A DNA stretch of 64,000 nucleotides, taken from the NCBI RefSeq assembly GCF_044324785.1, contig NZ_CP172127.1; one strand, written 5' to 3'. Made by a program: the position numbers and the translations under genes. The stretch comes from Escherichia coli (GTDB lineage: Bacteria > Pseudomonadota > Gammaproteobacteria > Enterobacterales > Enterobacteriaceae). Each line of letters begins with the position of its first letter. Positions within the stretch are counted from its first letter, which is position 1. This document shows, one piece after another, positions 1 to 18,856 of this stretch. The notes below the pieces were generated by a model. It made no database searches, was not told the origin of the DNA, and saw only the letters and a list, made by a program, of their open reading frames with translations.

Positions 1-204
1 CGTGTCGTCATCACCTACGCGACCAATAAAATCAACCTGCGCCCCCAGCCTTGCCGCCGCAACCGCTGCCGTCGCCGCTGGCCCGCCACCAACTTCCGTA
101 TAATTTCTCGCCACGTATTTACCGCTCTCCGTCGGTAATCCTTCCACGTAATAAATACGATCCATCACGGTAATACCTACACAAGCAACACGAATCATGG
201 TCAT
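1..204 (-). CDS. yihV: PfkB-family sugar kinase (6-deoxy-6-sulfofructose kinase), N-terminal 68 codons; gene runs off the window start
   Basis: Reverse-strand ATG at 204; translation MTMIRVACVGITVMDRIYYVEGLPTESGKYVARNYTEVGGGPAATAAVAAARLGAQVDFIGRVGDDDT is open to the window edge; divergent from yihU as in the E. coli cluster. Confidence 0.75.
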   Translation of the reverse strand, partial: MTMIRVACVGITVMDRIYYVEGLPTESGKYVARNYTEVGGGPAATAAVAAARLGAQVDFIGRVGDDDT

Positions 205-365
205 TCCTTAAGCATTTTGGGATGCGTTCATTTTAATTTCACCAATTGTTTAAAAAGTGACGGCTGTCAATTTTTTGACGATAAATTACAAATACGATCA
301 AAAACAGACAAGCAAAGCATGTCATAAATGACAAAAAGTGACATCACTGTATTCAGGAGAGGGTT

Positions 366-1262
366 ATGGCAGCAATCGCGTTTATCGGTTTAGGACAAAT
401 GGGTTCGCCAATGGCGAGCAATTTATTGCAGCAAGGGCATCAACTTCGCGTCTTTGATGTGAACGCCGAAGCTGTGCGGCATCTGGTAGACAAAGGTGCG
501 ACTCCCGCCGCCAACCCGGCGCAGGCCGCTAAAGATGCCGAATTTATCATTACCATGTTGCCGAATGGCGATCTGGTGCGCAGCGTGTTGTTCGGTGAAA
601 ACGGCGTTTGCGAAAGCTTATCTACCGATGCGCTGGTCATCGATATGTCGACCATCCATCCGCTGCAAACCGATAAATTGATTGCCGATATGCAAGCCAA
701 AGGCTTCAGCATGATGGATGTTCCGGTAGGCCGTACTTCTGCAAATGCCATTACCGGTACTCTGTTACTGCTGGCTGGCGGCACCGCTGAACAAGTTGAA
801 CGCGCCACACCGATCCTGATGGCGATGGGCAGTGAGTTGATCAACGCGGGCGGCCCGGGCATGGGGATCCGCGTTAAGCTCATCAACAACTACATGAGCA
901 TCGCGCTCAATGCGCTTTCGGCAGAAGCCGCCGTTTTGTGCGAAGCCCTGAATCTTCCCTTCGATGTTGCCGTCAAGGTGATGAGCGGCACCGCCGCCGG
1001 TAAAGGCCACTTCACCACTTCCTGGCCAAACAAAGTCCTCAGCGGGGATCTTTCTCCCGCCTTCATGCTCGATCTTGCCCATAAGGATCTTGGTATCGCC
1101 CTTGATGTCGCCAACCAGCTGCATGTGCCAATGCCGCTGGGGGCCGCCTCACGGGAGGTTTATAGCCAGGCGCGCGCAGCGGGTCGCGGTCGCCAGGACT
1201 GGTCCGCCATTCTGGAACAGGTCCGTGTCAGTGCCGGGATGACTGCCAAAGTAAAAATGTAA
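366..1262 (+). CDS. yihU: 3-sulfolactaldehyde reductase (beta-hydroxyacid dehydrogenase family)
   Basis: 298-aa ORF with N-terminal Rossmann motif ([10 protein letters not shown]); recognised protein; synteny. Confidence 0.9.
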
Positions 1263-1285
1263 CGACTGGATAAAGGAATAAATGA

Positions 1286-2164
1286 ATGCATAAGTACACC
1301 ATCAACGACATTACGCGCGCATCGGGCGGTTTTGCCATGCTGGCGGTCGATCAACGCGAAGCCATGCGCATGATGTTTGCCGCGGCTGGGGCACCCGCTC
1401 CAGTAGCCGATAGCGTTTTAACTGATTTCAAAGTTAACGCTGCAAAGGCCCTCTCGCCTTACGCCTCCGCCATTCTGGTGGATCAACAGTTCTGTTACCG
1501 CCAGGTGGTTGAGCAAAACGCAATTGCCAAAAGTTGCGCCATGATTGTCGCCGCCGATGAGTTCATTCCTGGCAACGGTATTCCGGTAGATAGCGTGGTC
1601 ATTGACCGCAAAATCAACCCGCTACAAATCAAACAAGACGGTGGCAAAGCCTTAAAACTGCTGGTGCTGTGGCGTAGCGATGAAGATGCGCAGCAACGTC
1701 TGAATATGGTGAAAGAGTTCAACGAACTGTGCCATTCAAACGGTCTGGTGAGCATCATTGAGCCGGTTGTTCGCCCGCCGCGTCGTGGCGATAAATTCGA
1801 TCGCGAACAAGCGATCATTGATGCCGCCAAAGAGCTGGGCGACAGTGGCGCTGACCTCTACAAAGTTGAAATGCCGCTTTATGGCAAAGGTCCGCAACAA
1901 GAGCTTCTCAGTGCTTCACAACGTCTGAATGACCATATCAATATGCCGTGGGTGATCCTCTCATCCGGTGTCGACGAAAAACTGTTCCCGCGTGCCGTAC
2001 GCGTGGCAATGACAGCGGGTGCATCGGGCTTCCTGGCTGGTCGTGCCGTCTGGGCATCGGTTGTCGGTTTACCAGACAACGAGCTGATGCTGCGTGACGT
2101 TTGCGCACCGAAATTACAACAACTTGGCGATATCGTCGACGAAATGATGGCTAAACGCCGTTAA
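1286..2164 (+). CDS. yihT: 6-deoxy-6-sulfofructose-1-phosphate aldolase
   Basis: 292-aa ORF, recognised protein, 24-bp spacing after yihU. Confidence 0.88.
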
Positions 2165-2179
2165 GATGGGGATATAAAA

Positions 2180-3421
2180 ATGAAATGGTTTAACACCTTA
2201 AGTCACAACCGTTGGCTGGAACAGGAAACCGATCGCATCTTTGATTTTGGTAAAAATTCCGTAGTACCGACCGGATTTGGCTGGTTAGGCAATAAAGGGC
2301 AAATCAAAGAAGAGATGGGCACCCATCTGTGGATCACCGCTCGTATGTTGCACGTTTATTCTGTTGCTGCGGCGATGGGTCGACCTGGCGCTTACTCGTT
2401 GGTTGATCACGGTATCAAAGCCATGAACGGCGCACTGCGCGATAAAAAATATGGCGGTTGGTATGCCTGCGTGAATGACGAGGGCGTGGTGGATGCCTCC
2501 AAACAGGGCTATCAACACTTCTTTGCTCTGCTGGGTGCCGCCAGCGCGGTCACAACGGGTCACCCGGAAGCACGCAAGCTGCTCGATTACACCATTGAAA
2601 TTATCGAGAAATACTTCTGGAGCGAAGAAGAGCAGATGTGCCTTGAGTCCTGGGACGAAGCCTTCAGCAAAACCGAAGAATATCGCGGTGGCAATGCCAA
2701 CATGCACGCGGTAGAAGCCTTCCTGATTGTCTATGACGTCACGCATGACAAAAAATGGCTGGATCGCGCCATTCGCGTGGCTTCCGTGATTATCCACGAT
2801 GTCGCCAGAAATAATCATTATCGCGTTAACGAGCACTTCGATACCCAGTGGAATCCGCTGCCGGATTACAACAAAGATAACCCGGCGCACCGCTTCCGCG
2901 CGTTCGGAGGTACTCCGGGCCACTGGATCGAATGGGGCCGTTTAATGCTGCACATCCACGCTGCCCTGGAAGCCCGCTTCGAACAGCCGCCTGCCTGGCT
3001 GCTAGAAGATGCCAAAGGTCTGTTTAACGCCACCGTGCGCGATGCCTGGGCACCCGATGGCGCGGACGGGATTGTTTATACCGTTGACTGGGAAGGAAAA
3101 CCGGTGGTCCGCGAACGTGTGCGTTGGCCTATCGTCGAAGCGATGGGTACGGCCTACGCGCTCTACACCGTCACCGGCGATCGCCAGTATGAAACCTGGT
3201 ATCAGACATGGTGGGACTACTGCATTAAGTACCTGATGGACTATGAAAATGGTTCCTGGTGGCAGGAGCTGGATGCGGACAATAAGGTCACCACCAAAGT
3301 CTGGGACGGCAAACAGGATATTTATCACCTGCTGCATTGCCTGGTGATCCCGCGTATCCCGTTAGCGCCAGGCCTGGCTCCGGCAGTTGCGGCGGGTCTG
3401 CTGGATATTAACGCGAAATAA
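2180..3421 (+). CDS. yihS: sulfoquinovose isomerase (AGE-fold)
   Basis: 413-aa ORF, recognised protein, synteny. Confidence 0.88.
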
Positions 3422-3487
3422 CTGACTAAAAAAACGACATATCAGGCTGCACGCCGGGTATGTCGTTATTCAATAAAGGTACCTCGT

Positions 3488-4390
3488 ATGCAAATCACCA
3501 ACATGCATTGCAGTGGACAGACCGTTTCACTTGCCGCGGGGGATTATCACGCGACTATCGTGACGGTTGGTGCTGGTCTGGCTGAATTAACCTTTCAGGG
3601 TTGTCATTTAGTCATCCCGCACAAACCCGAAGAGATGCCGCTGGCGCATCTGGGTAAAGTGCTTATTCCGTGGCCGAACCGGATCGCCAACGGCTGTTAC
3701 CGCTATCAGGGGCAGGACTATCAGTTACCCATTAATGAACATAGTTCAAAAGCCGCTATTCACGGGCTGCTTGCCTGGCGTGACTGGCAAATTAGCGAAT
3801 TAACCGCCACCAGCGTTACCCTGACAGCTTTTCTGCCGCCCAGTTACGGCTATCCGTTTATGCTGGCTTCACAAGTTGTTTATTCGCTCAATGCTCGCAC
3901 GGGCCTTTCCGTTGAGATCGCAAGCCAGAATATTGGTACTGTGACCGCACCTTATGGTGTGGGTATTCATCCTTATTTAACCTGTGACTTAACGCCTGTT
4001 GATGACTATCTTTTCCAGCTTCCGGCAGAACAGGTTTATGCCGTCGATGAGCACGCAAATCCGACAACGCTTCACCACGTTGATGAGCTGAATTTAAATT
4101 TCACGCGGGCGACAAAAATAGCCGCGACAAAAATCGACCACACCTTTAAAACCGCTAATGATCTGTGGGAAATGACCATTACCCATCCACAGCATTTGCT
4201 TTCGGTGAGCCTCTGTTCCGATCAACCCTGGGTGCAGGTTTATAGCGGTGAAAAATTACAGCGTCAGGGACTGGCAGTTGAACCTATGAGTTGCCCGCCT
4301 GATGCGTTTAATTCAGGTATCGACTTATTATTACTGGAACCAGGAAAAACGCACCGCCTGTTTTTTAATATTCACGGGCAGCACAATTAA
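3488..4390 (+). CDS. yihR: aldose 1-epimerase family protein (sulfoquinovose mutarotase)
   Basis: 300-aa ORF, recognised protein, synteny. Confidence 0.85.
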   Translation: MQITNMHCSGQTVSLAAGDYHATIVTVGAGLAELTFQGCHLVIPHKPEEMPLAHLGKVLIPWPNRIANGCYRYQGQDYQLPINEHSSKAAIHGLLAWRDWQISELTATSVTLTAFLPPSYGYPFMLASQVVYSLNARTGLSVEIASQNIGTVTAPYGVGIHPYLTCDLTPVDDYLFQLPAEQVYAVDEHANPTTLHHVDELNLNFTRATKIAATKIDHTFKTANDLWEMTITHPQHLLSVSLCSDQPWVQVYSGEKLQRQGLAVEPMSCPPDAFNSGIDLLLLEPGKTHRLFFNIHGQHN

Positions 4391-4450
4391 TTTTATTAAG
4401 AAAAGAACGAGATCATTGTTTAGGGTTGTATTTACACAACAGGAAAGATT

Positions 4451-5326
4451 ATGGACTTTTTTACATTATTTACGCCGGACGGGGCCATGGTGGAAACAAG
4501 CGTGGTATGTATCGTTATCGCGTTAATGTTTCTTTATACCTTTGTGGGGATATGCGCGGGATTTGGCGGTGGTTTAACCACTATGCCGCTCGTCACGTTA
4601 ATGCTCCCCGTAAAAATGGCAACTCCGCTCTCGGTGATTGTCGGCACCGCAACCGCCTTGTACGCCACCTGGCTGTCACGTAAAGAAACGGATTGGCGAT
4701 CGGCAATGGTACTGATTATTTTCTCGTTTCTGGGAATACCCGTCGGTTTATATGCGCTGTCGTATTTACCCGACCATTTTATGAAAGTGGGCTTAGGCGG
4801 ATTCCTTATCCTTTACTCGTTTTACAGCATGTTTATTCCTCGCCTGCCGATTTATGACCGTAACTGGATCGCCGCACCTATCGGCGCAGTAGCTGGTGCA
4901 TTAGGTGCGGCGTTCTCAACCAACGGACCGCCGATGGTTATCTACGGTATGCTGCGTAACTTAGGCCCGGCGGCATTTCGCGGCACTTTGAACGCTTTCT
5001 TCACCGCAAACAACATCGCGGTGATCGGCGGGCTGGCAACCAGCGGAATTTTGACTGTCTCTATCTTTAAACTGGTGTTGTTTTGTATTCCCACCATGAT
5101 CCTCGGTTCACTGGTTGGACAATATGTGCATAAACGCATTTCGGTCAAAGTGTTCCGTGTGATGGTCTTTTTATTGCTGATTGCCTCCGGTTCTATGTTG
5201 ATAAAAGGCGCGCTGGGAATTCCCGCCGCTGCCGCACTTCTGCCTCCGTTTACCTTGTTAGTTATACTGCAACTGGCATTCGGTAAAAAAGTGGCGGCAA
5301 TCCGCCGGGCTGAAGAAAGTAAATAA
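4451..5326 (+). CDS. TSUP / TauE-SafE family (DUF81) polytopic membrane permease; candidate sulfonate or sulfite exporter
   Basis: 291-aa ORF with SD AGGA 6 nt upstream of ATG; multiple hydrophobic helices and the family's Gly-rich motif (GFGGGLTTMPL); function is inferred from family and context only. Confidence 0.8.
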   Translation: MDFFTLFTPDGAMVETSVVCIVIALMFLYTFVGICAGFGGGLTTMPLVTLMLPVKMATPLSVIVGTATALYATWLSRKETDWRSAMVLIIFSFLGIPVGLYALSYLPDHFMKVGLGGFLILYSFYSMFIPRLPIYDRNWIAAPIGAVAGALGAAFSTNGPPMVIYGMLRNLGPAAFRGTLNAFFTANNIAVIGGLATSGILTVSIFKLVLFCIPTMILGSLVGQYVHKRISVKVFRVMVFLLLIASGSMLIKGALGIPAAAALLPPFTLLVILQLAFGKKVAAIRRAEESK

Positions 5327-5431
5327 TCATTATGCGGGTTTTAATTTATACCCGCACACATTCTTTAATTAATGAAACCTGTAATAACAGGATGGCATGA
5401 AATATTAGCTTTATATCTATGGAGATTATTT

Positions 5432-7468
5432 ATGGATACGCCACGCCCACAGTTACCAGATTTTAAATTTCATCATAATAACGACCGTTTTACCCTACGT
5501 TTTCAGGGCCGTCTTATTTTATCCCATAGTAAAGATAATCCTTGTTTATCGATTGGCTCAGGTATTGCGGATATTGATATGTTCCGTGGCAATTTCAGCA
5601 TTAAAGATAAATTGCAGGAGAAGATTGCGCTTACCGACGCTACCGTCAGCCAGTCACCGGATGGCTGGTTAATCCATTTCAGCCGTGGTTCTGACATTAG
5701 CGCCACGCTGAATATCTCTGCCGACGATCAGGGCCGTTTATTGCTGGAACTACAAAACGACAACCATCACCACAACCGCATCTGGCTGCGCCTTGCCGCT
5801 CAACCAGAGGACCATATCTACGGCTGCGGTGAACAATTCTCCTACTTTGATCTGCGCGGCAAACCGTTCCCGCTATGGACCAGTGAACAAGGCGTTGGTC
5901 GCAACAAGCAAACCTATGTCACCTGGCAGGCCGACTGCAAAGAGAACGCGGGCGGCGACTATTACTGGACTTTCTTCCCGCAGCCTACGTTTGTCAGCAC
6001 GCAGAAGTATTACTGCCATGTTGATAACAGTTGCTACATGAACTTCGACTTTAGTGCCCCGGATTACCACGAACTGGCGCTGTGGGAAGACAAAGCAACG
6101 CTGCGTTTTGAATGTGCTGATACATACATCTCCCTGCTGGAAAAATTAACTGCCCTGCTGGGACGCCAGCCAGAACTGCCCGACTGGATTTATGACGGGG
6201 TAACGCTCGGCATTCAGGGCGGGACGGAAGTGTGTCAGAAGAAACTGGACACCATGCGTAACGCGGGCGTGAAGGTTAACGGCATCTGGGCGCAGGACTG
6301 GTCCGGGATCCGTATGACCTCTTTTGGCAAACGCGTGATGTGGAACTGGAAGTGGAACAGCGAAAACTATCCGCAACTGGACTCACGTATTAAGCAGTGG
6401 AACAAAGAGGGCGTTCAGTTCCTTGCCTATATCAACCCGTATGTCGCCAGTGATAAAGACCTCTGTGCCGAAGCAGCAAAACACGGCTATCTGGCAAAAG
6501 ATGCCTGTGGCGGTGACTATCTGGTGGAATTCGGCGAGTTCTACGGCGGCGTTGTCGATCTCACTAATCCGGAAGCCTACGCCTGGTTCAAGGAAGTGAT
6601 CAAAAAGAACATGATTGAACTCGGCTGCGGCGGCTGGATGGCTGACTTCGGCGAGTATCTGCCCACCGACACTTACCTGCATAACGGCGTTAGCGCCGAA
6701 ATTATGCATAACGCCTGGCCCGCACTGTGGGCGAAGTGTAACTACGAAGCCCTTGAAGAAACGGGCAAGCTCGGCGAGATCCTTTTCTTTATGCGCGCCG
6801 GTTCTACCGGTAGCCAGAAATACTCCACCATGATGTGGGCGGGCGACCAGAACGTCGACTGGAGTCTGGACGATGGCCTGGCGTCGGTCGTCCCGGCGGC
6901 GCTGTCGCTGGCAATGACCGGACATGGCCTGCATCACAGTGACATTGGCGGTTATACCACCCTGTTTGAGATGAAGCGCAGCAAAGAGCTGCTGCTGCGC
7001 TGGTGCGATTTCAGCGCCTTCACGCCGATGATGCGCACCCACGAAGGCAACCGCCCCGGTGACAACTGGCAGTTTGACGGCGACGCGGAAACTATCGCCC
7101 ATTTTGCCCGTATGACCACCGTCTTCACCACCCTGAAACCTTACCTGAAAGAGGCCGTCGCGCTGAATGCGAAATCCGGCCTGCCAGTTATGCGCCCGCT
7201 GTTCCTGCATTACGAAGACGACGCGCAGACCTACACCCTGAAATATCAGTACCTGTTAGGCCGCGACATTCTGGTCGCTCCGGTGCATGAAGAAGGCCGT
7301 AGCGACTGGACGCTCTATCTGCCGGAGGATAACTGGGTCCATGCCTGGACGGGAGAAACCTTCCACGGGGGAGAAATAACCGTTGAAGCGCCCATCGGCA
7401 AGCCGCCGGTCTTTTATCGCGCCGATAGCGAATGGGCGGCACTGTTCGCGTCGTTAAAAAGCATCTAA
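5432..7468 (+). CDS. yihQ: sulfoquinovosidase, glycoside hydrolase family 31
   Basis: ORF track starts at 5372; the in-frame ATG at 5432 gives the 678-aa protein beginning MDTPRPQLPDF that I recognise. Confidence 0.9.
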   Translation: MDTPRPQLPDFKFHHNNDRFTLRFQGRLILSHSKDNPCLSIGSGIADIDMFRGNFSIKDKLQEKIALTDATVSQSPDGWLIHFSRGSDISATLNISADDQGRLLLELQNDNHHHNRIWLRLAAQPEDHIYGCGEQFSYFDLRGKPFPLWTSEQGVGRNKQTYVTWQADCKENAGGDYYWTFFPQPTFVSTQKYYCHVDNSCYMNFDFSAPDYHELALWEDKATLRFECADTYISLLEKLTALLGRQPELPDWIYDGVTLGIQGGTEVCQKKLDTMRNAGVKVNGIWAQDWSGIRMTSFGKRVMWNWKWNSENYPQLDSRIKQWNKEGVQFLAYINPYVASDKDLCAEAAKHGYLAKDACGGDYLVEFGEFYGGVVDLTNPEAYAWFKEVIKKNMIELGCGGWMADFGEYLPTDTYLHNGVSAEIMHNAWPALWAKCNYEALEETGKLGEILFFMRAGSTGSQKYSTMMWAGDQNVDWSLDDGLASVVPAALSLAMTGHGLHHSDIGGYTTLFEMKRSKELLLRWCDFSAFTPMMRTHEGNRPGDNWQFDGDAETIAHFARMTTVFTTLKPYLKEAVALNAKSGLPVMRPLFLHYEDDAQTYTLKYQYLLGRDILVAPVHEEGRSDWTLYLPEDNWVHAWTGETFHGGEITVEAPIGKPPVFYRADSEWAALFASLKSI

Positions 7469-7513
7469 TCACGTCCGCCCGTGGGGAAACTCACGGGCAA
7501 AGGGAGAACAACG

Positions 7514-8899
7514 ATGAGTCACATCACAACGGAAGATCCGGCTACTTTACGTCTGCCCTTTAAAGAGAAACTCTCTTACGGTATCGGCGATCTGGCCTCT
7601 AACATCCTGCTGGATATCGGCACGCTTTATCTTTTGAAGTTTTATACCGACGTTCTGGGGCTGCCCGGCACCTATGGCGGCATTATCTTTTTGATTTCAA
7701 AGTTCTTTACCGCCTTTACCGATATGGGTACCGGCATTATGTTGGATTCCCGACGCAAGATCGGTCCAAAAGGCAAATTCCGCCCTTTTATTCTGTATGC
7801 ATCATTCCCGGTCACCCTGTTGGCGATCGCCAACTTTATCGGCACACCGTTTGATGTCACCGGTAAAACGGTGATGGCCACCATCCTGTTTATGCTTTAC
7901 GGACTGTTTTTCAGCATGATGAACTGCTCCTACGGCGCAATGGTCCCCGCTATTACTAAAAACCCCAACGAACGTGCATCGCTGGCAGCATGGCGTCAGG
8001 GTGGCGCTACATTGGGCCTGCTGCTGTGTACGGTGGGATTCGTGCCGGTTATGAATCTTATCGAAGGTAATCAGCAACTTGGCTATATCTTCGCCGCCAC
8101 GCTGTTTTCACTGTTCGGCCTGCTGTTTATGTGGATCTGCTACTCGGGCGTGAAAGAGCGTTATGTCGAAACCCAACCTGCAAATCCGGCGCAAAAGCCT
8201 GGCCTGCTGCAGTCTTTCCGCGCGATTGCTGGTAACCGCCCACTATTCATTCTGTGTATTGCCAACCTCTGCACTTTAGGGGCGTTTAACGTCAAGCTCG
8301 CCATTCAGGTCTATTACACGCAGTACGTGCTTAACGATCCCATCCTGTTGTCGTATATGGGATTTTTCAGCATGGGCTGTATTTTCATCGGCGTGTTCCT
8401 GATGCCTGGTGCAGTCAGACGTTTTGGTAAGAAGAAGGTCTATATCGGCGGCCTGCTGATTTGGGTGCTGGGCGATCTGCTCAACTATTTCTTTGGCGGC
8501 GGCTCGGTCAGCTTTGTGGCGTTCTCCTGCCTGGCGTTCTTCGGCTCAGCGTTTGTTAACAGCCTGAACTGGGCGCTGGTTTCTGACACCGTCGAGTACG
8601 GCGAGTGGCGCACCGGTGTGCGTTCGGAAGGTACGGTCTACACCGGCTTCACTTTCTTTCGCAAAGTGTCTCAGGCGCTGGCTGGTTTCTTCCCCGGCTG
8701 GATGCTGACGCAAATCGGCTATGTGCCAAACGTGGCGCAGGCTGACCATACCATCGAAGGTTTACGCCAGCTGATCTTCATCTACCCAAGCGCACTGGCG
8801 GTAGTCACCATTGTGGCGATGGGTTGCTTCTACAGTCTGAACGAGAAAATGTACGTCCGCATTGTTGAAGAAATAGAAGCCCGTAAACGCACGGCATAA
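7514..8899 (+). CDS. yihP: GPH-family sugar:cation symporter
   Basis: ORF track starts at 7481; likely start ATG 7514 (MSHITTEDP...); 12-TM transporter, paralogous to yihO. Confidence 0.85.
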   Translation: MSHITTEDPATLRLPFKEKLSYGIGDLASNILLDIGTLYLLKFYTDVLGLPGTYGGIIFLISKFFTAFTDMGTGIMLDSRRKIGPKGKFRPFILYASFPVTLLAIANFIGTPFDVTGKTVMATILFMLYGLFFSMMNCSYGAMVPAITKNPNERASLAAWRQGGATLGLLLCTVGFVPVMNLIEGNQQLGYIFAATLFSLFGLLFMWICYSGVKERYVETQPANPAQKPGLLQSFRAIAGNRPLFILCIANLCTLGAFNVKLAIQVYYTQYVLNDPILLSYMGFFSMGCIFIGVFLMPGAVRRFGKKKVYIGGLLIWVLGDLLNYFFGGGSVSFVAFSCLAFFGSAFVNSLNWALVSDTVEYGEWRTGVRSEGTVYTGFTFFRKVSQALAGFFPGWMLTQIGYVPNVAQADHTIEGLRQLIFIYPSALAVVTIVAMGCFYSLNEKMYVRIVEEIEARKRTA

Positions 8900-10202
8900 A
8901 TAATAAACAACGCCCTGCGGGGCGTTATAAGGAGTGATTATGTCTGACCATAATCCACTGACATTAAGACTGAATCTGCGGGAAAAAATCGCCTATGGCA
9001 TGGGCGACGTCGGTTCGAATTTAATGCTTAGCATCGGCACTCTGTATCTCCTCAAATTTTATACCGATGAATTAGGGATGCCTGCTTACTATGGCGGGAT
9101 TATCTTTCTGGTAGCGAAGTTTTTTACCGCGTTTACCGATATGCTCACCGGATTTTTACTCGACTCGCGGAAAAATATTGGGCCTAAAGGCAAATTTCGT
9201 CCCTTTATTTTATATGCAGCGGTTCCGGCGGCGTTAATTGCAACGCTCCAGTTTATCGCCACCACTTTTAGTTTGCCGGTTAAAACGACGATTGCCACCG
9301 CGCTGTTTATGATGTTTGGACTTTCATACAGTCTGATGAACTGCTCGTATGGCGCGATGATCCCGGCAATTACCAAAAACCCCAATGAGCGCGCGCAGCT
9401 TGCGGCTTACCGCCAGGGTGGTGCAACCATAGGGCTATTGATTTGTACCGTGGCGTTTATTCCGTTGCAGTCGCTTTTTTCTGACTCCACCGTCGGTTAT
9501 GCCTGTGCGGCACTTATGTTCTCCATTGGCGGCTTTATTTTTATGATGCTGTGCTACAGAGGCGTCAAAGAGCATTATGTGGACACAACGCCAACCGGAC
9601 ATAAAGCCAGTATTCTCAAATCATTTTGCGCGATATTTCGGAATCCGCCATTGCTGGTTTTGTGCATTGCTAACCTGTGTACCCTGGCGGCATTTAATAT
9701 CAAACTGGCGATTCAGGTCTATTACACCCAGTATGTGCTGAATGATATTAACTTATTGTCGTGGATGGGATTCTTCAGTATGGGATGCATCCTCATCGGC
9801 GTATTGCTGGTGCCATTAAGCGTAAAATGTTTTGGTAAAAAACAGGTTTATTTAGCTGGCATGGTGCTGTGGGCGGTGGGGGATATCCTGAATTATTTCT
9901 GGGGAAGTAACTCTTTCACTTTCGTCATGTTCTCTTGTATCGCCTTTTTTGGCACGGCCTTTGTAAACAGCCTGAACTGGGCACTGGTGCCAGATACCGT
10001 AGATTACGGTGAATGGAAAACCGGTATTCGTGCCGAAGGTTCTGTTTATACCGGTTATACCTTCTTTCGTAAAATTTCTGCCGCACTTGCTGGCTTCTTG
10101 CCAGGCATTATGCTGACGCAAATCGGTTATATTCCCAACATCGCGCAGGTGATGCTGCCAACTTACTGATTTAGTGTATGATGGTGTTTTTGAGGTGCTC
10201 CA

Positions 10203-10478
10203 GTGGCTTCTGTTTCTATCAGCTGTCCCTCCTGTTCAGCTACTGACGGGGTGGTGCGTAACGGCAAAAGCACCGCCGGACATCAGCGCTATCTCTGCTC
10301 TCACTGCCGTAAAACATGGCAACTGCAGTTCACTTACACCGCTTCTCAACCCGGTACGCACCAGAAAATCATTGATATGGCCATGAATGGCGTTGGATGC
10401 CGGGCAACTGCCCGCATTATGGGCGTTGGCCTCAACACGATTTTACGTCACTTAAAAAACTCAGGCCGCAGTCGGTAA
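10203..10478 (+). CDS. insA: IS1 InsA
   Basis: 91-aa [27 protein letters not shown]..., recognised. Confidence 0.95.
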
Positions 10479-10900
10479 CCTCGCGCATACAGCCGGGCAG
10501 TGACGTCATCGTCTGCGCGGAAATGGACGAACAGTGGGGCTATGTCGGGGCTAAATCGCGCCAGCGCTGGCTGTTTTACGCGTATGACAGTCTCCGGAAG
10601 ACGGTTGTTGCGCACGTATTCGGTGAACGCACTATGGCGACGCTGGGGCGTCTTATGAGCCTGCTGTCACCCTTTGACGTGGTGATATGGATGACGGATG
10701 GCTGGCCGCTGTATGAATCCCGCCTGAAGGGAAAGCTGCACGTAATCAGCAAGCGATATACGCAGCGAATTGAGCGGCATAACCTGAATCTGAGGCAGCA
10801 CCTGGCACGGCTGGGACGGAAGTCGCTGTCGTTTTCAAAATCGGTGGAGCTGCATGACAAAGTCATCGGGCATTATCTGAACATAAAACACTATCAATAA
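10397..10900 (+). CDS. insB: IS1 InsB (made as InsAB' transposase by -1 frameshift at the A6C motif near 10453..10463)
   Basis: ORF in -1 frame overlapping insA; TTAAAAAACTC slippery motif present. Confidence 0.9.
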
Positions 10901-11186
10901 GTTGGAGTCATTACCCATCGCGCAAAGTGATGCGACATTACAGGGTTTGCGTCAGCTCATTTTTATCTGGCCTTGTGCACTGGCAATTATTGCTGCATTG
11001 ACGATGGGATTCTTTTACACACTCAATGAAAAACGGTTTGCGTTGATTATTGAGGAAATCAACCAACGCAAAAATAAAGAGATGGCGACAGAAGAAAAAA
11101 CGGCTTCCGTAACGTTATAAATGTCAATAGCCGCTATTTCCATCCTGGTGGGTGGCGGCCTCCCTACGTTTAAAAATGGACTTATT

Positions 11187-11879
11187 ATGAAAAATATTAA
11201 TGCAATAATTTTATTATCTTCTCTGACCTCTGCCTCAGTATTCGCTGGCGCATACGTCGAAAACAGGGAGGCATATAATCTCGCCTCCGATCAGGGCGAG
11301 GTTATGCTACGTGTGGGTTATAACTTCGATATGGGCGCGGGTATTATGTTAACCAATACCTACACCTTTCAGCGAGAAGATGAACTAAAACATGGATATA
11401 ACGAAATTGAAGGTTGGTATCCTTTATTTAAACCAACCGATAAATTAACCATCCAGCCCGGTGGCTTAATTAATGACAAGAGTATCGGTTCGGGTGGTGC
11501 CGTTTATCTGGATGTTAACTACAAATTTACTCCGTGGTTTAACCTGACGGTGCGTAATCGCTATAACCATAATAATTACAGCTCTACAGATTTGAACGGC
11601 GAATTGGATAATAACGACACCTATGAAGTTGGCACCTACTGGAACTTTAAAATAACAGAAAAATTTTCCTATACATTTGAACCACATTACTTCATGCGAG
11701 TGAATGACTTTAATAGTAGCAACGGGAAAGATCATCATTGGGAAATCACTAACACCTTCCGTTACCGTATTAATGAACACTGGCTTCCTTATTTCGAATT
11801 GCGCTGGTTAGACCGCAACGTCGAACCGTACCACCGCGAGCAAAACCAGATCCGTATCGGGACGAAGTATTTCTTCTGA
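11187..11879 (+). CDS. ompL: outer membrane porin OmpL
   Basis: ORF track starts at 11121; likely start ATG 11187 (MKNINAIILLSSLTSASVFA signal peptide), C-terminal aromatic residue typical of OM beta-barrels. Confidence 0.85.
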   Translation: MKNINAIILLSSLTSASVFAGAYVENREAYNLASDQGEVMLRVGYNFDMGAGIMLTNTYTFQREDELKHGYNEIEGWYPLFKPTDKLTIQPGGLINDKSIGSGGAVYLDVNYKFTPWFNLTVRNRYNHNNYSSTDLNGELDNNDTYEVGTYWNFKITEKFSYTFEPHYFMRVNDFNSSNGKDHHWEITNTFRYRINEHWLPYFELRWLDRNVEPYHREQNQIRIGTKYFF

Positions 11880-11885
11880 TGTGAA

Positions 11886-11966
<81 letters not shown>

Positions 11967-11969
11967 TAA

Positions 11970-13235
11970 TTAAGCTTCAGCCGCCAGCATCTCTTTCTTA
12001 CGTTGGCTAATACGCTTAACCAGCATTACGGAAACCACCGCACCACAGAATGCGAAGCAGGCCATAATGCCAAACACGATTTTGTAGCCAATAATCCCCG
12101 GATTTAAATCCAGAATGTAGCCATACAGACTGAAGCAGAACATCGCCGGGGCGTAACCAATAAAGCTACCCAACGCCATCGCCGCGCCTGTTTTATTTTC
12201 AGCAATTTTTGCTTCGCCGATAGGTGCAAAAAATACGGCTCGCTGTGTAAAGACTATCGCGCCAAAGCCCAGCGTACATGCCATCCCTAAATAGACCGGC
12301 ATACTTTCGTGCGGCAGCATAATCAACAGTACGAGCGCAGCGGTACTGATGATAAAGGTGTAACATAGATATTTACTCGGCGATTTCAGGATCTTATCTG
12401 AAATCATGCCACCAATCGGTCCACCAATCATTTTCAGACAGTATTGGTTAATGATGCCGTAAGCCCCCACCAGCGCAACGGGCAATAGATAGATGTTTTT
12501 CAGGAATGGAATGAAGAATGTCAGGCCACAGTAAACCGCGTAAACGAAGAAGACGTTGAAAGCGATAAGCCAGATAGTTTTGTCTTTCAGCACCGAGGTC
12601 ATACTGGTGTTTTTCGATGCTCCGTCTTCTTTTTTCACCTCAACGGACGGTGCCTCTTCTTTGTCATTCAGAACAAAGAAAATGATAATGCCTACGGCAA
12701 TCACAATAAGGGAATAGAACCAGATGCCTGCTTTAAAACCCAATAAGCCACTGCCAAACCAGGTAAATACTGCCAACGCAGAAAATGCCACCACGGTATC
12801 GACAATGCCACGCCCTGTTTCGAAGAAGCCAAACAACCGACCTTGTTGTTCGCTATTGCCTAATCGACTTACCGACTTGAGCAAGACCGGCCAGTTCATC
12901 ATGTCGCAAGTAACGCCAAATAGCGCCCAGACAAAGAGGATGCCCCAATACCCCGGCATTGTCGTCAAATAAACACCCAGTAATCCTGTCGCAATGAGTG
13001 AGAATGACATGGTGTATCTGCGCGGTAGTTTATCGGCAAAATAAATAGACAGAAAAAAGCCCACTGTCGTGACAAATGAGTTTACCGACATAGCATTACC
13101 AATTTGACCATTGGTCAAATGGAAATATTCCTGCATCGGGATATAAAACGCATCTTTCAGCGACGGTAATTTATAAATTGTACCGCCACACAATGTTAAT
13201 AGACTAAATAACGCCCATTTCTTTTTCGTGAGCAT
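11970..13235 (-). CDS. yihN: MFS transporter
   Basis: 421-aa ORF, hydrophobic, recognised, synteny. Confidence 0.88.
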   Translation of the reverse strand: MLTKKKWALFSLLTLCGGTIYKLPSLKDAFYIPMQEYFHLTNGQIGNAMSVNSFVTTVGFFLSIYFADKLPRRYTMSFSLIATGLLGVYLTTMPGYWGILFVWALFGVTCDMMNWPVLLKSVSRLGNSEQQGRLFGFFETGRGIVDTVVAFSALAVFTWFGSGLLGFKAGIWFYSLIVIAVGIIIFFVLNDKEEAPSVEVKKEDGASKNTSMTSVLKDKTIWLIAFNVFFVYAVYCGLTFFIPFLKNIYLLPVALVGAYGIINQYCLKMIGGPIGGMISDKILKSPSKYLCYTFIISTAALVLLIMLPHESMPVYLGMACTLGFGAIVFTQRAVFFAPIGEAKIAENKTGAAMALGSFIGYAPAMFCFSLYGYILDLNPGIIGYKIVFGIMACFAFCGAVVSVMLVKRISQRKKEMLAAEA

Positions 13236-13336
13236 AACATCCCCTAAGCGATTTTTAAAATCACTGTTTTAAAGGCAATAAGATACCGACCATTCATATC
13301 GAATGGTTTTATTAACTGCGTATGAGTTAAAACTTA

Positions 13337-14317
13337 TTAGTGGTTCAGAAGATGGTTTGCCTCTTGTTTGATTTGTTGTAGTACGTTACGCACATGATTT
13401 ATCTGATTAATTGCATCTTCTTTTTCTTTACGTAACCGCGCATCCAGTAAATGATTTTCTGGCAATGGTGTTTCACTCATCTGGCGATAAGGGATCCACG
13501 GATTATCATCTTCGTCTTCAAAGCGGAACGCCGGCGCATAGTAATCAACCTCTTCTTCCAGGCCATATGCCGTCACCTGCGGCTCATCATCACCAAGGCA
13601 GATAAGGTGCGTTAATAACGCTTTGAACGGCATATCACCCTGACCTGAAATACAGGCTTTATGACCCAGGCCACCCTGTTCTTTAACGATCAAGGCATCT
13701 TTAATATGGACCTGGGTAATATGCGGTGCCATCGTTTTTAAGGCGTCGATGGGATGCTCATTTGCATTGATCATGTTCGCAAAATCAAACAGTAAGGAAA
13801 GAGACTCCATCTCACTTTCTTTGACCAGCGACACCAGCTCATGACTTTTTAAATCTTCATGCTGCTCAATCGTAAAAGTCAGGCCGCTGTCCTGATACGT
13901 TTCCCGTACATAGGCAATGTCGTTAGCGATAATCGATAATACGTCGCGCAAATTACCTTCATAACGTGGATAAAAACGTACGGACGATGCCCCAGTTTTC
14001 AACGCAATGGCGACGGCTTCGTCAATAGATGCCTTATCTGAAGCGCTGGTTTCAATATGAATATCAAGGTTCAGACGGCGGGCTTTATCCCCAAAGGCAG
14101 AGAGTTCTTTATCGTCCATATTACCAAGAGAAAAACGCTCGCCATCCAGAACATGGATTTTGACGCCACGTAGATTATTTTCACTTGCGATATCAAGTAA
14201 ATCAGCAGGCAACACTCTTTCCAGCCGCATATTTAAATGAAAGGCATAAGCATGTAAATAAAGAGGAAGAGTGTCGACACGTTGTAGAATCTTTCTTGCG
14301 TTATTTATTGTCACCAT
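13337..14317 (-). CDS. yihM: sugar phosphate isomerase/epimerase (xylose-isomerase-like TIM barrel)
   Basis: 326-aa ORF, synteny. Confidence 0.85.
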   Translation of the reverse strand: MVTINNARKILQRVDTLPLYLHAYAFHLNMRLERVLPADLLDIASENNLRGVKIHVLDGERFSLGNMDDKELSAFGDKARRLNLDIHIETSASDKASIDEAVAIALKTGASSVRFYPRYEGNLRDVLSIIANDIAYVRETYQDSGLTFTIEQHEDLKSHELVSLVKESEMESLSLLFDFANMINANEHPIDALKTMAPHITQVHIKDALIVKEQGGLGHKACISGQGDMPFKALLTHLICLGDDEPQVTAYGLEEEVDYYAPAFRFEDEDDNPWIPYRQMSETPLPENHLLDARLRKEKEDAINQINHVRNVLQQIKQEANHLLNH

Positions 14318-14324
14318 AAAACAC

Positions 14325-15035
14325 CTACAGATTAATGATGAGGTCTACGGCCTCAAATCGCCAATATTCAATATCTATCTGGACAATATTGCCTTGCTGG
14401 TCGGCGCGATGCTTTTCAATTAAGATCGCTGGCATACCCGCAGAACCGCCAAGATACTTGCTGATATCGCCCGGCATTCTGACGGGTTTGAAAATCAATT
14501 TTTTTACTACCGTCTCTTTTTGGTAGCACTTTTCCCAGACTGCAGAAAATGAGTGGTTTTCAAGTTGTTCAATAAAACCCGGAGCAACTTCAGGATTAAT
14601 ATATGTTTCGTGATAGAAAACTTTATGTCCTTCCAGCGCCCCCCAGCCGGTGATGCGATAGAGTTCAGTTGATGGTGTCACTGCAATCAGTGGCGCGAGC
14701 GTCTCGGGAATATCGCTGGTACGGTTTTTCTCGGTAAACCCCCAGGAAGGCTCTCGTCTTTGCTCAATTGCGGCCCGCTGAAAGCTCGCTGACAGCTCCG
14801 GACTGTAATTAAATCGCGGCTGGGTCACGAACCACCCCTTACGATCCTTACGGAAGATTTTGGATTCTGCCTCGAGGTTCAACAACGCCTGGCGCAGCGT
14901 CATACGTTTAATGCCCAGCAGTTCTCCCAGCTCTCTTTCTGAAGGGAGTTTTCCACCCGGCGTGGTGATGCCATCTTTCAACCACCGATCCAGTTTCTCT
15001 TTTGCATTTTCTACGGTGGATTGATTCTCCGCCAT
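14325..15035 (-). CDS. yihL: GntR-family transcriptional regulator
   Basis: 236-aa ORF, N-terminal HTH region, synteny. Confidence 0.85.
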   Translation of the reverse strand: MAENQSTVENAKEKLDRWLKDGITTPGGKLPSERELGELLGIKRMTLRQALLNLEAESKIFRKDRKGWFVTQPRFNYSPELSASFQRAAIEQRREPSWGFTEKNRTSDIPETLAPLIAVTPSTELYRITGWGALEGHKVFYHETYINPEVAPGFIEQLENHSFSAVWEKCYQKETVVKKLIFKPVRMPGDISKYLGGSAGMPAILIEKHRADQQGNIVQIDIEYWRFEAVDLIINL

Positions 15036-15201
15036 TGTTTAATCCTTTTGGTTTAAACCAGATGAAGCATCTTACGCTTACGCCAAAAAAGAAAGCAATT
15101 AACGGTGTATGACTTTGCAGATAATTGTGACAAAGCTCTCTATTGACGTAATCACAGACTTATAAGGGAGATACTCGCATTGGTGTGCGCTCACGACAGG
15201 T

Positions 15202-15233
15202 AAAAAAAACCTGCCAGCGATGGCAGGTTTTTT
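15202..15233 (-). terminator. rho-independent terminator downstream of typA (hairpin CCTGCCA..TGGCAGG flanked by A/T runs; potentially bidirectional)
   Basis: Stem-loop plus U-tract read directly. Confidence 0.6.
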
Positions 15234-15250
15234 ATGACTGAAAAGCGAAA

Positions 15251-17074
15251 TTAATCGTCTTTCGGTGCGCGGTTGGCGCGACGACGATCGTTTTCCGTCA
15301 GGTGACGTTTACGAATACGGATAGAGGTCGGAGTCACTTCTACCAGTTCGTCATCATCGATGAACTCCAGAGCTTGTTCCAGAGTCATGCGGATAGGCGG
15401 AACCAGAACAACGGCTTCGTCAGTACCGGAAGCACGCATGTTGGTCAGTTTCTTACCGGTCAGGCAGTTTACAGTCAGGTCGTTAGAGCGGCTGTGAATA
15501 CCGATAATTTGACCTTCGTAAACTTCTGCACCGTGACCGAGGAACAGCTTACCGCGATCCTGCAGACCGAACAGCGCGAACGCTACCGCTTTACCCTGAC
15601 CGTTAGAGATCAGTACACCGTTCTGACGCTGACCCACTTCGCCCGGACGTACGTCGTCGTAGTGGCTGAAGGTGGAGTACAGCAGACCAGTACCGGAAGT
15701 CATGGTCATGAACTCAGAACGGAAGCCAATCAGACCACGGCTTGGGATCACGTAGTCGAGACGTACGCGGCCTTTACCGTCTGGATTCATGTTTTTCAGG
15801 TCGCCTTTACGTTCGCCCAGCGCCTGCATCACAGAACCCTGATGCTGTTCTTCAACGTCCAGCGTCACGTTTTCATACGGCTCTTGTTTACGACCGTCGA
15901 TTTCACGGAAGATTACTTTCGGACGGGATACCGCCAGTTCGAAACCTTCACGACGCATGTTTTCGATAAGAACAGACAGGTGCAGTTCGCCACGACCAGA
16001 AACGCGGAACGCATCGGCGTCTTCGGTTTCTTCTACGCGCAGCGCAACGTTGTGTACCAGTTCTTTGTTCAGACGATCCAGGATCTGACGAGACGTTACG
16101 AACTTACCTTCTTTACCGCAGAACGGCGAGGTGTTAACGCAGAAGAACATAGAAACGGTCGGCTCATCAACGGAGAGTGCCGGCAGCGCTTCAACGTTTT
16201 GCGTGTCGCAAACGGTGTCAGAAATGTTCAGTTCGCCCAGGCCCGTGATCGCCACGATATCGCCAGCTTCCGCCAGATCGGTTTCAATACGTTCCAGACC
16301 GAGGTGGCCCAGCACTTTACCGACTTTCGCGTTACGGGTTTTGCCTTCGCTATCGATGATAGTGACCTGTTGGTTCGGCTTCACTTTACCGCGCTTGATG
16401 CGGCCAATGCCGATAACGCCAACATAGCTGTTGTAATCGAGCTGAGAAATCTGCATCTGGAACGGACCGTCAAGGTCAACGTCCGGCGCAGGAACGTGGT
16501 CAACAATCGCCTGGTACAGCGGAGTCATGTCTTCCGCCATATCTTCGTGGTCCAGACCCGCGATACCGTTCAGCGCAGAAGCGTAAACGATCGGGAAGTC
16601 CAGCTGCTCGTCGGTCGCGTCGAGGTTAACGAACAGATCGAATACCTGATCCACAACCCAGTCAGGACGCGCGCCAGGGCGGTCAACTTTGTTGATAACA
16701 ACAATCGGCTTCAGGCCGTAAGCAAACGCTTTTTTGGTTACGAAGCGCGTTTGCGGCATCGGGCCGTCAAATGCGTCAACCACCAGCAGCACTGAGTCTA
16801 CCATGGACATTACACGTTCAACTTCACCACCGAAGTCGGCGTGCCCCGGGGTATCAACGATGTTGATACGGTAATCATTCCATTTGATAGCGGTGTTTTT
16901 CGCGAGGATGGTAATCCCACGCTCTTTCTCCAAATCGTTGGAGTCCATCACGCGCTCTTGGGTTTCGGCACGAGAGTCGAACGTACCGGATTGTTGGAGC
17001 AGCTTGTCTACCAGGGTGGTTTTACCATGGTCTACGTGCGCGATGATGGCGATATTACGCAATTTTTCGATCAC
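15251..17074 (-). CDS. typA: ribosome-associated translational GTPase BipA/TypA
   Basis: 607-aa ORF, G1 motif AHVDHGKTT, recognised. Confidence 0.95.
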
Positions 17075-17225
17075 AACTTTGCCTCAGGCATTAGAAATAG
17101 CGCGTTATTGTACACGGATTAATCGCACTACAAAACAGGATCACAAACATCCTCCGCAAACAAGTATTGCAGAGTCCCTTTGTGATCGCTTTCACGGAGC
17201 ATAAAAAGGGTTATCCAAAGGTCAT

Positions 17226-17274
17226 TGCACCAATATGGTGCTTAATGTTTCCATTGAAGCACTATATTGGTGCA
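17226..17274 (+). promoter_or_regulatory. two NtrC (NRI) enhancer sites upstream of glnA (TGCACCAATATGGTGC and GCACTATATTGGTGCA)
   Basis: Inverted-repeat TGCACC-N-GGTGCA-type sites read directly; established glnA regulation. Confidence 0.6.
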
Positions 17275-17346
17275 ACATTCACATCATGGTGCAGCCCTTT
17301 TGCACGATGTTAAGCATGATAACGCCTTTTAGGGGCAATTTAAAAG

Positions 17347-17363
17347 TTGGCACAGTTTTCGCT
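17347..17363 (+). promoter_or_regulatory. sigma-54 promoter glnAp2 (TGGCAC-N5-TCGCT, GG-N10-GC)
   Basis: -24/-12 elements read directly upstream of glnA. Confidence 0.7.
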
Positions 17364-17446
17364 TTATCTTTTTTACGGCGACACGGCCAAAATAATTGCA
17401 GATTTCGTTACCACGACGACCATGACCAATCCAGGAGAGTTAAAGT

Positions 17447-18856
17447 ATGTCCGCTGAACACGTACTGACGATGCTGAACGAGCACGAAGTGAAGTTTGTT
17501 GATTTGCGCTTCACCGATACCAAAGGTAAAGAACAGCACGTCACTATCCCTGCTCATCAGGTGAATGCTGAATTCTTCGAAGAAGGCAAAATGTTTGACG
17601 GCTCCTCGATTGGCGGCTGGAAAGGCATTAACGAATCCGACATGGTGCTGATGCCAGACGCATCCACCGCAGTGATTGACCCGTTCTTCGCCGATTCTAC
17701 CCTGATTATCCGTTGCGACATCCTTGAACCTGGCACCCTGCAAGGCTATGACCGTGACCCGCGCTCCATCGCGAAGCGCGCCGAAGATTACCTGCGTTCT
17801 ACTGGCATTGCCGACACCGTACTGTTCGGGCCAGAACCTGAATTCTTCCTGTTCGATGACATCCGTTTCGGATCTTCTATCTCCGGTTCCCACGTTGCTA
17901 TCGACGATATCGAAGGCGCATGGAACTCCTCCACCCAATACGAAGGTGGTAACAAAGGTCACCGTCCGGCAGTGAAAGGCGGTTACTTCCCGGTTCCGCC
18001 GGTAGACTCTGCTCAGGATATTCGTTCTGAAATGTGTCTGGTGATGGAACAGATGGGTCTGGTGGTTGAAGCCCATCACCACGAAGTAGCGACTGCTGGT
18101 CAGAACGAAGTGGCTACCCGCTTCAATACCATGACCAAAAAAGCTGACGAAATTCAGATCTACAAATACGTTGTGCACAACGTAGCGCACCGCTTCGGTA
18201 AAACCGCGACCTTTATGCCAAAACCGATGTTCGGTGATAACGGCTCCGGTATGCACTGCCACATGTCACTGTCTAAAAACGGCGTCAACCTGTTCGCGGG
18301 TGACAAATATGCAGGTCTGTCTGAACAGGCGCTGTACTACATTGGCGGCGTAATCAAACACGCTAAAGCGATTAACGCCCTGGCAAACCCGACCACCAAC
18401 TCTTACAAGCGTCTGGTGCCGGGCTACGAAGCACCGGTAATGCTGGCTTACTCTGCGCGTAACCGTTCTGCGTCTATCCGTATTCCGGTGGTTTCTTCTC
18501 CGAAAGCACGTCGTATCGAAGTACGTTTCCCGGATCCGGCGGCTAACCCGTACCTGTGCTTTGCTGCCCTGCTGATGGCCGGTCTTGATGGTATCAAGAA
18601 CAAGATCCATCCGGGCGAAGCCATGGACAAAAACCTGTATGACCTGCCGCCAGAAGAAGCGAAAGAGATCCCACAAGTTGCAGGCTCTCTGGAAGAAGCA
18701 CTGAACGAGCTGGATCTGGACCGCGAGTTCCTGAAAGCCGGTGGCGTGTTCACGGATGAAGCGATCGATGCGTACATCGCTCTGCGTCGCGAAGAAGATG
18801 ACCGCGTACGTATGACTCCGCATCCGGTAGAGTTTGAGCTGTACTACAGCGTCTAA
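17447..18856 (+). CDS. glnA: glutamine synthetase
   Basis: 469-aa ORF, recognised. Confidence 0.97.

Follow-up and report, generated by a model that had tools for sequence, protein, structure and literature searches.

A conserved sulfoquinovose cluster of Escherichia coli with a recent IS1 insertion in the putative importer gene yihO

We analysed a stretch of 64,000 nucleotides (nt) from Escherichia coli (contig NZ_CP172127.1; hereafter the window), the first 11,879 nt of which hold the yih genes for breakdown of sulfoquinovose (SQ) by the sulfo-EMP (sulfo-Embden-Meyerhof-Parnas) route. The locus is best explained, with a probability that we put at roughly 0.8, as a conserved cluster of the ancestral type in which the gene for the SQ importer, yihO, has been knocked out in one clone by a fresh insertion of the element IS1, with no rewiring of transport. 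An earlier note on this DNA had described the locus as remodelled rather than simply conserved; that seems to be the wrong frame for a conserved ancestral arrangement plus a single fresh IS1.

The IS1 insertion in yihO

The yihO gene starts at position 8940 and is interrupted after its nt 1208, so that its disruption, already noticed earlier, can be assigned to one intact IS1 element flanked by a duplication of 9 base pairs (bp):

8940-10147, plus strand: 5' part of yihO, codons 1-403; matches only positions 1-389 of the 437 of TIGR00792
10139-10147, no strand: left copy of the 9-bp target-site duplication CATCGCGCA, a direct repeat with its copies 777 nt apart
10148-10915, plus strand: IS1, 768 bp, intact; 23-nt inverted repeats; NF033558 matches for both open reading frames (ORFs)
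10916-10924, no strand: right copy of the 9-bp target-site duplication CATCGCGCA, direct repeat
10925-11120, plus strand: 3' part of yihO, codons 404-467 (last transmembrane helix and C-terminal tail), severed from its start

The element is typical of IS1 throughout, in its length, inverted repeats and target-site duplication as well as in its coding part, which consists of insA (10203-10478) and the insB frame (10397-10900), both matching the IS1 transposase model NF033558, with the A6C frameshift motif TTAAAAAAC visible at about 10452-10460. When IS1 is removed in silico along with one of the two duplication copies, a YihO ORF of 467 amino acids (aa) re-forms, 461 of them identical to K-12. 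This reconstructed ORF carries no secondary damage, shows no decay since the insertion, and is full length against the 12-helix GPH profile (TIGR00792, 437 positions). The product encoded at present does not span that profile. It consists of 403 native YihO residues followed by six IS1-encoded ones (VMLPTY, with the stop codon at 10167-10169), and it lacks profile positions 390-437 as well as the last hydrophobic helix, seen as a hydrophobicity peak at residues 408-432.

In the scenario that we propose, IS1 would have transposed recently into codon 403 of yihO and taken away the last transmembrane helix and the C-terminal tail, and this truncation is predicted to inactivate the SQ importer. 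SQ uptake would then be lost or severely reduced, with the catabolic enzymes staying in place, while ompL, which lies 3' of IS1, may be expressed at a lower level through polarity. Such an allele would represent an early stage of gene decay, potentially reversible through precise excision of IS1. Both the loss of YihO function and the SQ phenotype are predictions read from the sequence.

Age and distribution of the insertion

The genomes closest to the window keep yihO intact. E. coli N3 (CP031609) is 100% identical to the window over about 4.5-11.5 kb, and GCA_044152125.1 shows a single mismatch and a single gap against it over 10,156 nt; yihO is uninterrupted in both. The exact yihO-IS1 junction is found in none of the 5426 complete E. 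coli genomes searched, and the truncated 409-aa product is recorded on only two contigs. Since near-identical genomes have an intact gene and the junction is absent from the complete genomes, the insertion is, as judged from these comparisons, a very recent event limited to one clone.

IS1 is a multicopy element, matched at a median of about 10 sites in an E. coli genome, and repeats often cause misassembly, which would speak for an artefact in which a repeat was misplaced in yihO. The ends of the element are exact, however, the 9-bp duplication is perfect and the reading frame is exactly restored on removal. Moreover, one of the two contigs with the truncated product, a short-read contig represented by three samples, shows 100% identity with the window along 7237 nt and breaks off 29 nt into IS1. 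Because this independent contig carries the same junction, an assembly artefact is virtually ruled out.

Other natural IS1 insertions occur in the 3' part of yihO and in ompL. Strain PSS-08-1 has an independent insertion in yihO (L032, about 2166-2935), A27 (L033) has an IS1 with an adjoining deletion in which ompL-yihN are gone, and six strains carry IS1 inside ompL, for instance AR_0019 (L031 2575-3342). GN03590 (IS1 at L001 11675-12442) and GN03507 were considered as carriers of the junction found here, but their IS1 is a different isoform (93% identical) and sits 27 bp further on. Altogether about 10 of the 3893 genomes with yihQ have an IS1 here, within about 1.2 kb, and the isoforms differ. 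This number fits the random expectation for about ten IS1 copies per 4.6-Mb genome and is thus close to the genome-wide average, and we rejected a hot spot at yihO 3'/ompL. A Shigella-like load of IS1 was rejected as well, with a single IS1 end in the 64 kb of the window and few IS1 matches in its nearest relative N3.

It is quite improbable that the truncated YihO, with its 403 + 6 residues and without helix 12, still imports SQ and that the insertion is phenotypically silent. The product retains 86% of the protein and 11 predicted helices, and the insertions near the 3' end of yihO in GN03590/GN03507 and PSS-08-1 could mean that insertions at this end are tolerated; yet profile positions 390-437 are gone, and the count of nearby IS1 elements is close to random and gives no sign of tolerance. 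Loss of the last helix is also known to destabilise 12-helix transporters of the MFS/GPH type, such as LacY and MelB.

Gene content of the cluster and its relation to known systems

Judged by its genes and their order, the segment 1-11879 corresponds to the usual sulfo-EMP (yih) cluster of enterobacteria in the ancestral, Salmonella-like arrangement on the plus strand, in which yihV stands on one side and yihU-yihT-yihS-yihR-tauE-yihQ-yihP-yihO-ompL on the other. Besides yihO, its genes are:

1-198, minus strand: yihV, sulfofructose kinase, first 66 codons; the translation starts MIRVACVGITVMDR and the position matches yihV of E. coli N3 and GN03590
366-1262, plus strand: yihU, sulfolactaldehyde 3-reductase, 298 aa, intact; NF012005 equivalog, 601 bits (cutoff 348); K-12 identity 295/298
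1286-2164, plus strand: yihT, sulfofructose-1-phosphate aldolase, 292 aa, intact; yihT in the annotation of close relatives; K-12 identity 288/292
2180-3421, plus strand: yihS, sulfoquinovose isomerase, 413 aa, intact; K-12 identity 410/413
3488-4390, plus strand: yihR, aldose-1-epimerase (SQ mutarotase), 300 aa, intact, a divergent allele; NF011719, 608 bits; K-12 identity 281/300
4451-5326, plus strand: gene for a TauE-type TSUP permease, 291 aa; PF01925, E=4.7e-35; no counterpart in K-12
5432-7468, plus strand: yihQ, sulfoquinovosidase, 678 aa, intact; NF007746, 1240 bits; K-12 identity 657/678
7514-8899, plus strand: yihP, GPH-family transporter, the putative exporter of 2,3-dihydroxypropane-1-sulfonate (DHPS) in K-12, 461 aa, intact; TIGR00792, 536 bits; K-12 identity 458/461
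11187-11879, plus strand: ompL, porin, 230 aa, intact; NF007434 equivalog, 472 bits (cutoff 288); K-12 identity 224/230

The core enzymes YihS, YihT and YihU occur together, and yihV is represented by its first 66 codons; its remainder and csqR lie off the left edge of the window. Among the accessory components YihQ, YihR, YihP and OmpL are intact, and yihO is present and split by IS1. Except for YihO, and for yihV which is partial at the edge, all cluster proteins in the window are full length, with 94-99% identity to K-12. The earlier reports of an intact YihP, which matches TIGR00792 end to end (positions 1-437), and of the porin OmpL are both borne out.

The K-12 sulfo-EMP cluster ompL-yihOPQRSTUV-csqR (Denger et al. 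2014, as presented in PMC6278857, PMC8006165 and PMC12608037) has the same genes in the same order at the same locus by yihN/yihM/typA. Unlike K-12, the window has tauE between yihR and yihQ, a divergent centre at 1.5-9 kb and the IS1 in yihO. The yihU-yshA (ompL) cluster of Salmonella enterica has an identical architecture (yihU, T, S, R, tauE, yihQ, P, O, ompL), but its yihO is intact and typA follows directly after the cluster, without yihN, yihM and yihL. Following the classification of Kaznadzey et al. 2025, as given in PMC12608037, the window carries a yih cassette of the long type at the conserved locus.

Age and distribution of tauE

The extra TSUP permease of the earlier note is a real gene, but it is extra relative to K-12 only and ancestral to the cluster. 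Its product covers the PF01925 (TauE/SafE) domain at full length, with residues 23-248 aligned to model positions 2-235 of 237, and it shares with the TauE/SafE permeases of sulfonate pathways both this domain and the setting in a sulfonate-producing operon. The identical gene of N3 is annotated by RefSeq as 'sulfite exporter TauE/SafE family protein'; neither an NCBIfam equivalog nor a solved structure was found for TauE. A GC-stem hairpin, ATGCGGGT...ACCCGCAC, lies at 5330-5360 just 3' of the tauE stop codon, within the 105-nt spacer between tauE and yihQ, and was not flagged by a terminator scan.

The gene is present in 1295 of the 5426 complete E. coli genomes (24%; 1293 in a more sensitive search), always as a single chromosomal copy, and O157:H7 and O55:H7 are included. 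As yihQ, the marker of the long cassette, occurs in 3893 of these genomes, about one third of the long cassettes bear tauE. The yihR-yihQ spacer of K-12 MG1655 consists of about 150 bp of unrelated AT-rich DNA without tauE, and no remnant of the gene is seen in it, the only match being one of 20 nt in the shared flank. S. enterica likewise has tauE between yihR and yihQ (87% aa identity of TauE), and the gene order of Escherichia whittamii is identical to that of the window, tauE included. Orthologues with 75-85% aa identity are found in sulfo-EMP clusters of Kluyvera, Pantoea, Atlantibacter, Lelliottia, Klebsiella (K. quasipneumoniae) and further Enterobacteriaceae; in these clusters tauE is sited between yihQ and the GPH genes. 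Within Escherichia the ratio of nonsynonymous to synonymous substitution rates (dN/dS) of tauE is 0.04-0.08, similar to that of yihQ, while synonymous sites are saturated against Salmonella. Because of the shared position in Salmonella and E. whittamii, the wide spread and the strong purifying selection, the parsimonious view is of tauE as an ancestral member of the cluster held by selection, and of the K-12 haplotype as a deletion variant that lost it.

Haplotype mosaic at the locus

Compared with K-12 (L003), nucleotide identity is 98-99% at the edges and flanks of the cluster and falls to 93-97% over about 1.5-9 kb, and 3246 of the 3893 genomes with yihQ have an allele less than 95% identical to that of the window. 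This contrast between centre and edges suggests that the tauE-bearing centre is an old, divergent haplotype that spreads by recombination, and the divergent centre agrees with the description of the yih locus in PMC12608037 as evolutionarily labile and recombining. A smaller mosaic tract separates the window from N3 at 2001-4500 (yihS-yihR; 94.6-99.2% identity against 100% elsewhere), which indicates a recent import by recombination in either the window strain or N3. RefSeq flags csqR (L002 1-768) and yihU (L002 1866-2761) of N3 as frameshifted; yihU of the window is intact, and the two frameshifts are probably homopolymer assembly errors rather than biology.

The TauE permease in a second type of operon

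The orthogroup of TauE is not confined to sulfo-EMP clusters, but also closes a second type of operon in Hafnia, Enterobacter kobei, Raoultella, Edwardsiella, Mixta, Leminorella, Citrobacter amalonaticus and Vibrio owensii. A LacI regulator and an SSF symporter occupy one side of this operon; the other consists of an IlvD/Edd dehydratase, an HpcH/HpaI aldolase, an epimerase, an SGL lactonase, a YihU-like reductase, an SDR dehydrogenase and TauE. The closest solved relative of the SDR protein is the sulfoquinovose 1-dehydrogenase of Pseudomonas putida (9gwu, E=7e-96; next match 2e-58), and because of this wide margin we regard the operon as one of the sulfo-Entner-Doudoroff (sulfo-ED) type. Examples are:

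Hafnia, L026 1092-9888: sulfo-ED-type operon
Enterobacter kobei, L027 95-9876: sulfo-ED-type operon
Raoultella, L030 53-9885: sulfo-ED-type operon
Edwardsiella, L012 56-8885: sulfo-ED-type operon

Since a reductase takes the place of the sulfolactaldehyde dehydrogenase, the gene content suggests that the product is DHPS rather than sulfolactate. The operon is widespread in Enterobacterales and extends to V. owensii, and is seen in none of the 5426 complete E. coli genomes, in which tauE alone was matched (1293 genomes); we therefore rejected it as a source of growth on SQ in short-cassette E. coli.

The arrangement of these operons varies among species. In E. kobei (L027 3037-18876, Logan SRR28780521) one contig carries both a sulfo-ED-type operon and, at a distance of about 1.5 kb, a sulfo-EMP cluster, with Hcp/Tlde1-like genes between them; the sulfo-EMP cluster has csqR and yihV on one side and yihU, T, S, Q and a GPH gene on the other, with no yihR or tauE of its own, leaving one tauE for the two routes. 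In Raoultella ornithinolytica (L030 9001-13639) the sulfo-ED-type operon directly adjoins typA-glnA, the neighbourhood in which E. coli and Salmonella have their yih cluster (compare 11879-18856 of the window). The typA-glnA locus thus appears to accept alternative sulfoglycolysis cassettes.

In both pathway types, across about a dozen clusters, TauE always stands alongside a separate symporter of the sugar type, GPH in the sulfo-EMP and SSF in the sulfo-ED-type clusters, and a C3 sulfonate is the product class that the two pathways share. For these reasons we favour TauE as a sulfonate exporter, most likely of the C3-sulfonate end product (DHPS), parallel to YihP. TauE of Cupriavidus necator was reportedly described as a sulfite exporter by Weinitschke in 2007, and PMC8873060 cites it as a proposed exporter of sulfolactate. 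The TauE proteins of these clusters are usually read as exporters (PMC8873060). Their occurrence in both sulfo-EMP and sulfo-ED clusters was noted before (PMC8940949, citing Denger 2014 and Felux 2015).

Transporter assignments

The examined sulfo-EMP clusters, about a dozen, differ in their transporter sets. K-12 has YihO and YihP; the relatives of the window, Salmonella, Kluyvera, Pantoea and Atlantibacter have YihO, YihP and TauE; and K. quasipneumoniae and Lelliottia nimipressuralis have a YihO-like GPH protein and TauE. None of these clusters is without a YihO-type gene, whereas YihP or TauE is absent from some of them, each only where the other occurs. Lelliottia wanjuensis was considered as a cluster with YihP and TauE only and was rejected, as the apparent gap contains a frameshifted yihO. 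This copy (GCA_030238365.1; L028 11285-12705) lies in two frames split at about codon 311 and is not gene-called, and is either a true pseudogene or an error of the draft assembly. With the YihO-type gene constant and YihP and TauE each dispensable, the pattern fits import by YihO and export by YihP and TauE, and supports the existing assignments without being conclusive.

According to PMC6278857, which cites Denger 2014, growth on SQ is lacking in a K-12 delta-yihO mutant that still has yihP. Because of this phenotype, and as YihP of the window is identical to that of K-12 at 458 of 461 residues, YihP is unlikely to take over import. The truncated yihO, the intact enzymes and the SQ-negative mutant together favour one suggestion of the earlier note, namely that import through YihO is lost and the enzymes are kept.

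The same note had offered a second reading, in which YihP and/or the TSUP protein would take up SQ and the other one would release the product, so that the K-12 assignments of YihO as importer and YihP as exporter would be wrong or strain-dependent. Import by YihP is biochemically plausible for a GPH sugar:cation symporter homologue that is 65% identical to YihO, every catabolic gene within the window is intact, and uptake permeases do exist in the TSUP family. We nevertheless consider such re-routing very doubtful. Apart from the mutant phenotype, the closest relatives, Salmonella and further genera have tauE together with an intact yihO, and tauE hence does not represent a compensating acquisition linked to the lesion in yihO. 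The insertion is also too recent for co-adaptation, and a YihO-type gene is found in every sulfo-EMP cluster examined (frameshifted in the L. wanjuensis assembly), so that the transporter sets fit the current assignments and do not call for a change of them.

A related alternative takes K-12 as the deletion variant and supposes that TauE was ancestrally the main DHPS exporter, with YihO and YihP both serving as importers (e.g. of SQ and SQ-glycerol). We regard this as unlikely, though not far-fetched; if YihP were an importer, a yihO::IS1 strain that has tauE and yihP might retain the use of certain sulfoquinovose glycosides.

Several points weigh against our preferred interpretation of a conserved cluster with a fresh importer knockout. 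YihO without helix 12 could keep some activity, and the survey of co-occurrence covers only about a dozen clusters. The remainder of yihV and csqR are off the window, so that intact pathway genes can be stated for 1-11879 only. The TSUP family includes importers and takes its name from TsaS, a toluenesulfonate uptake permease. The substrate and direction assigned to TauE follow from gene context, and uptake by TauE would be compatible with the sequence as well. The TauE proteins of SQ clusters have indeed been called importers (PMC8940949).

Implications

Most of what is described here was already known: the pathway is a textbook one, TauE had been noted in such clusters and IS1 knockouts are routine. 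The importance of the locus is accordingly limited to a fresh IS1 knockout, in one clone, of a cluster with the commonest ancestral layout. A small gap concerns the 2025 survey of yih cassettes, the main text of which (PMC12608037) does not mention the tauE-bearing subtype, to which 1295 of the 3893 long cassettes belong here. More generally, annotation and pathway models based on K-12 omit a conserved TauE permease, which about one in four complete E. coli genomes have, as do Salmonella and the other enterobacterial sulfo-EMP clusters examined. The roles of YihO, YihP and TauE are still mostly inferred, and a natural yihO::IS1 strain that retains tauE and yihP would be a handy test strain for them.

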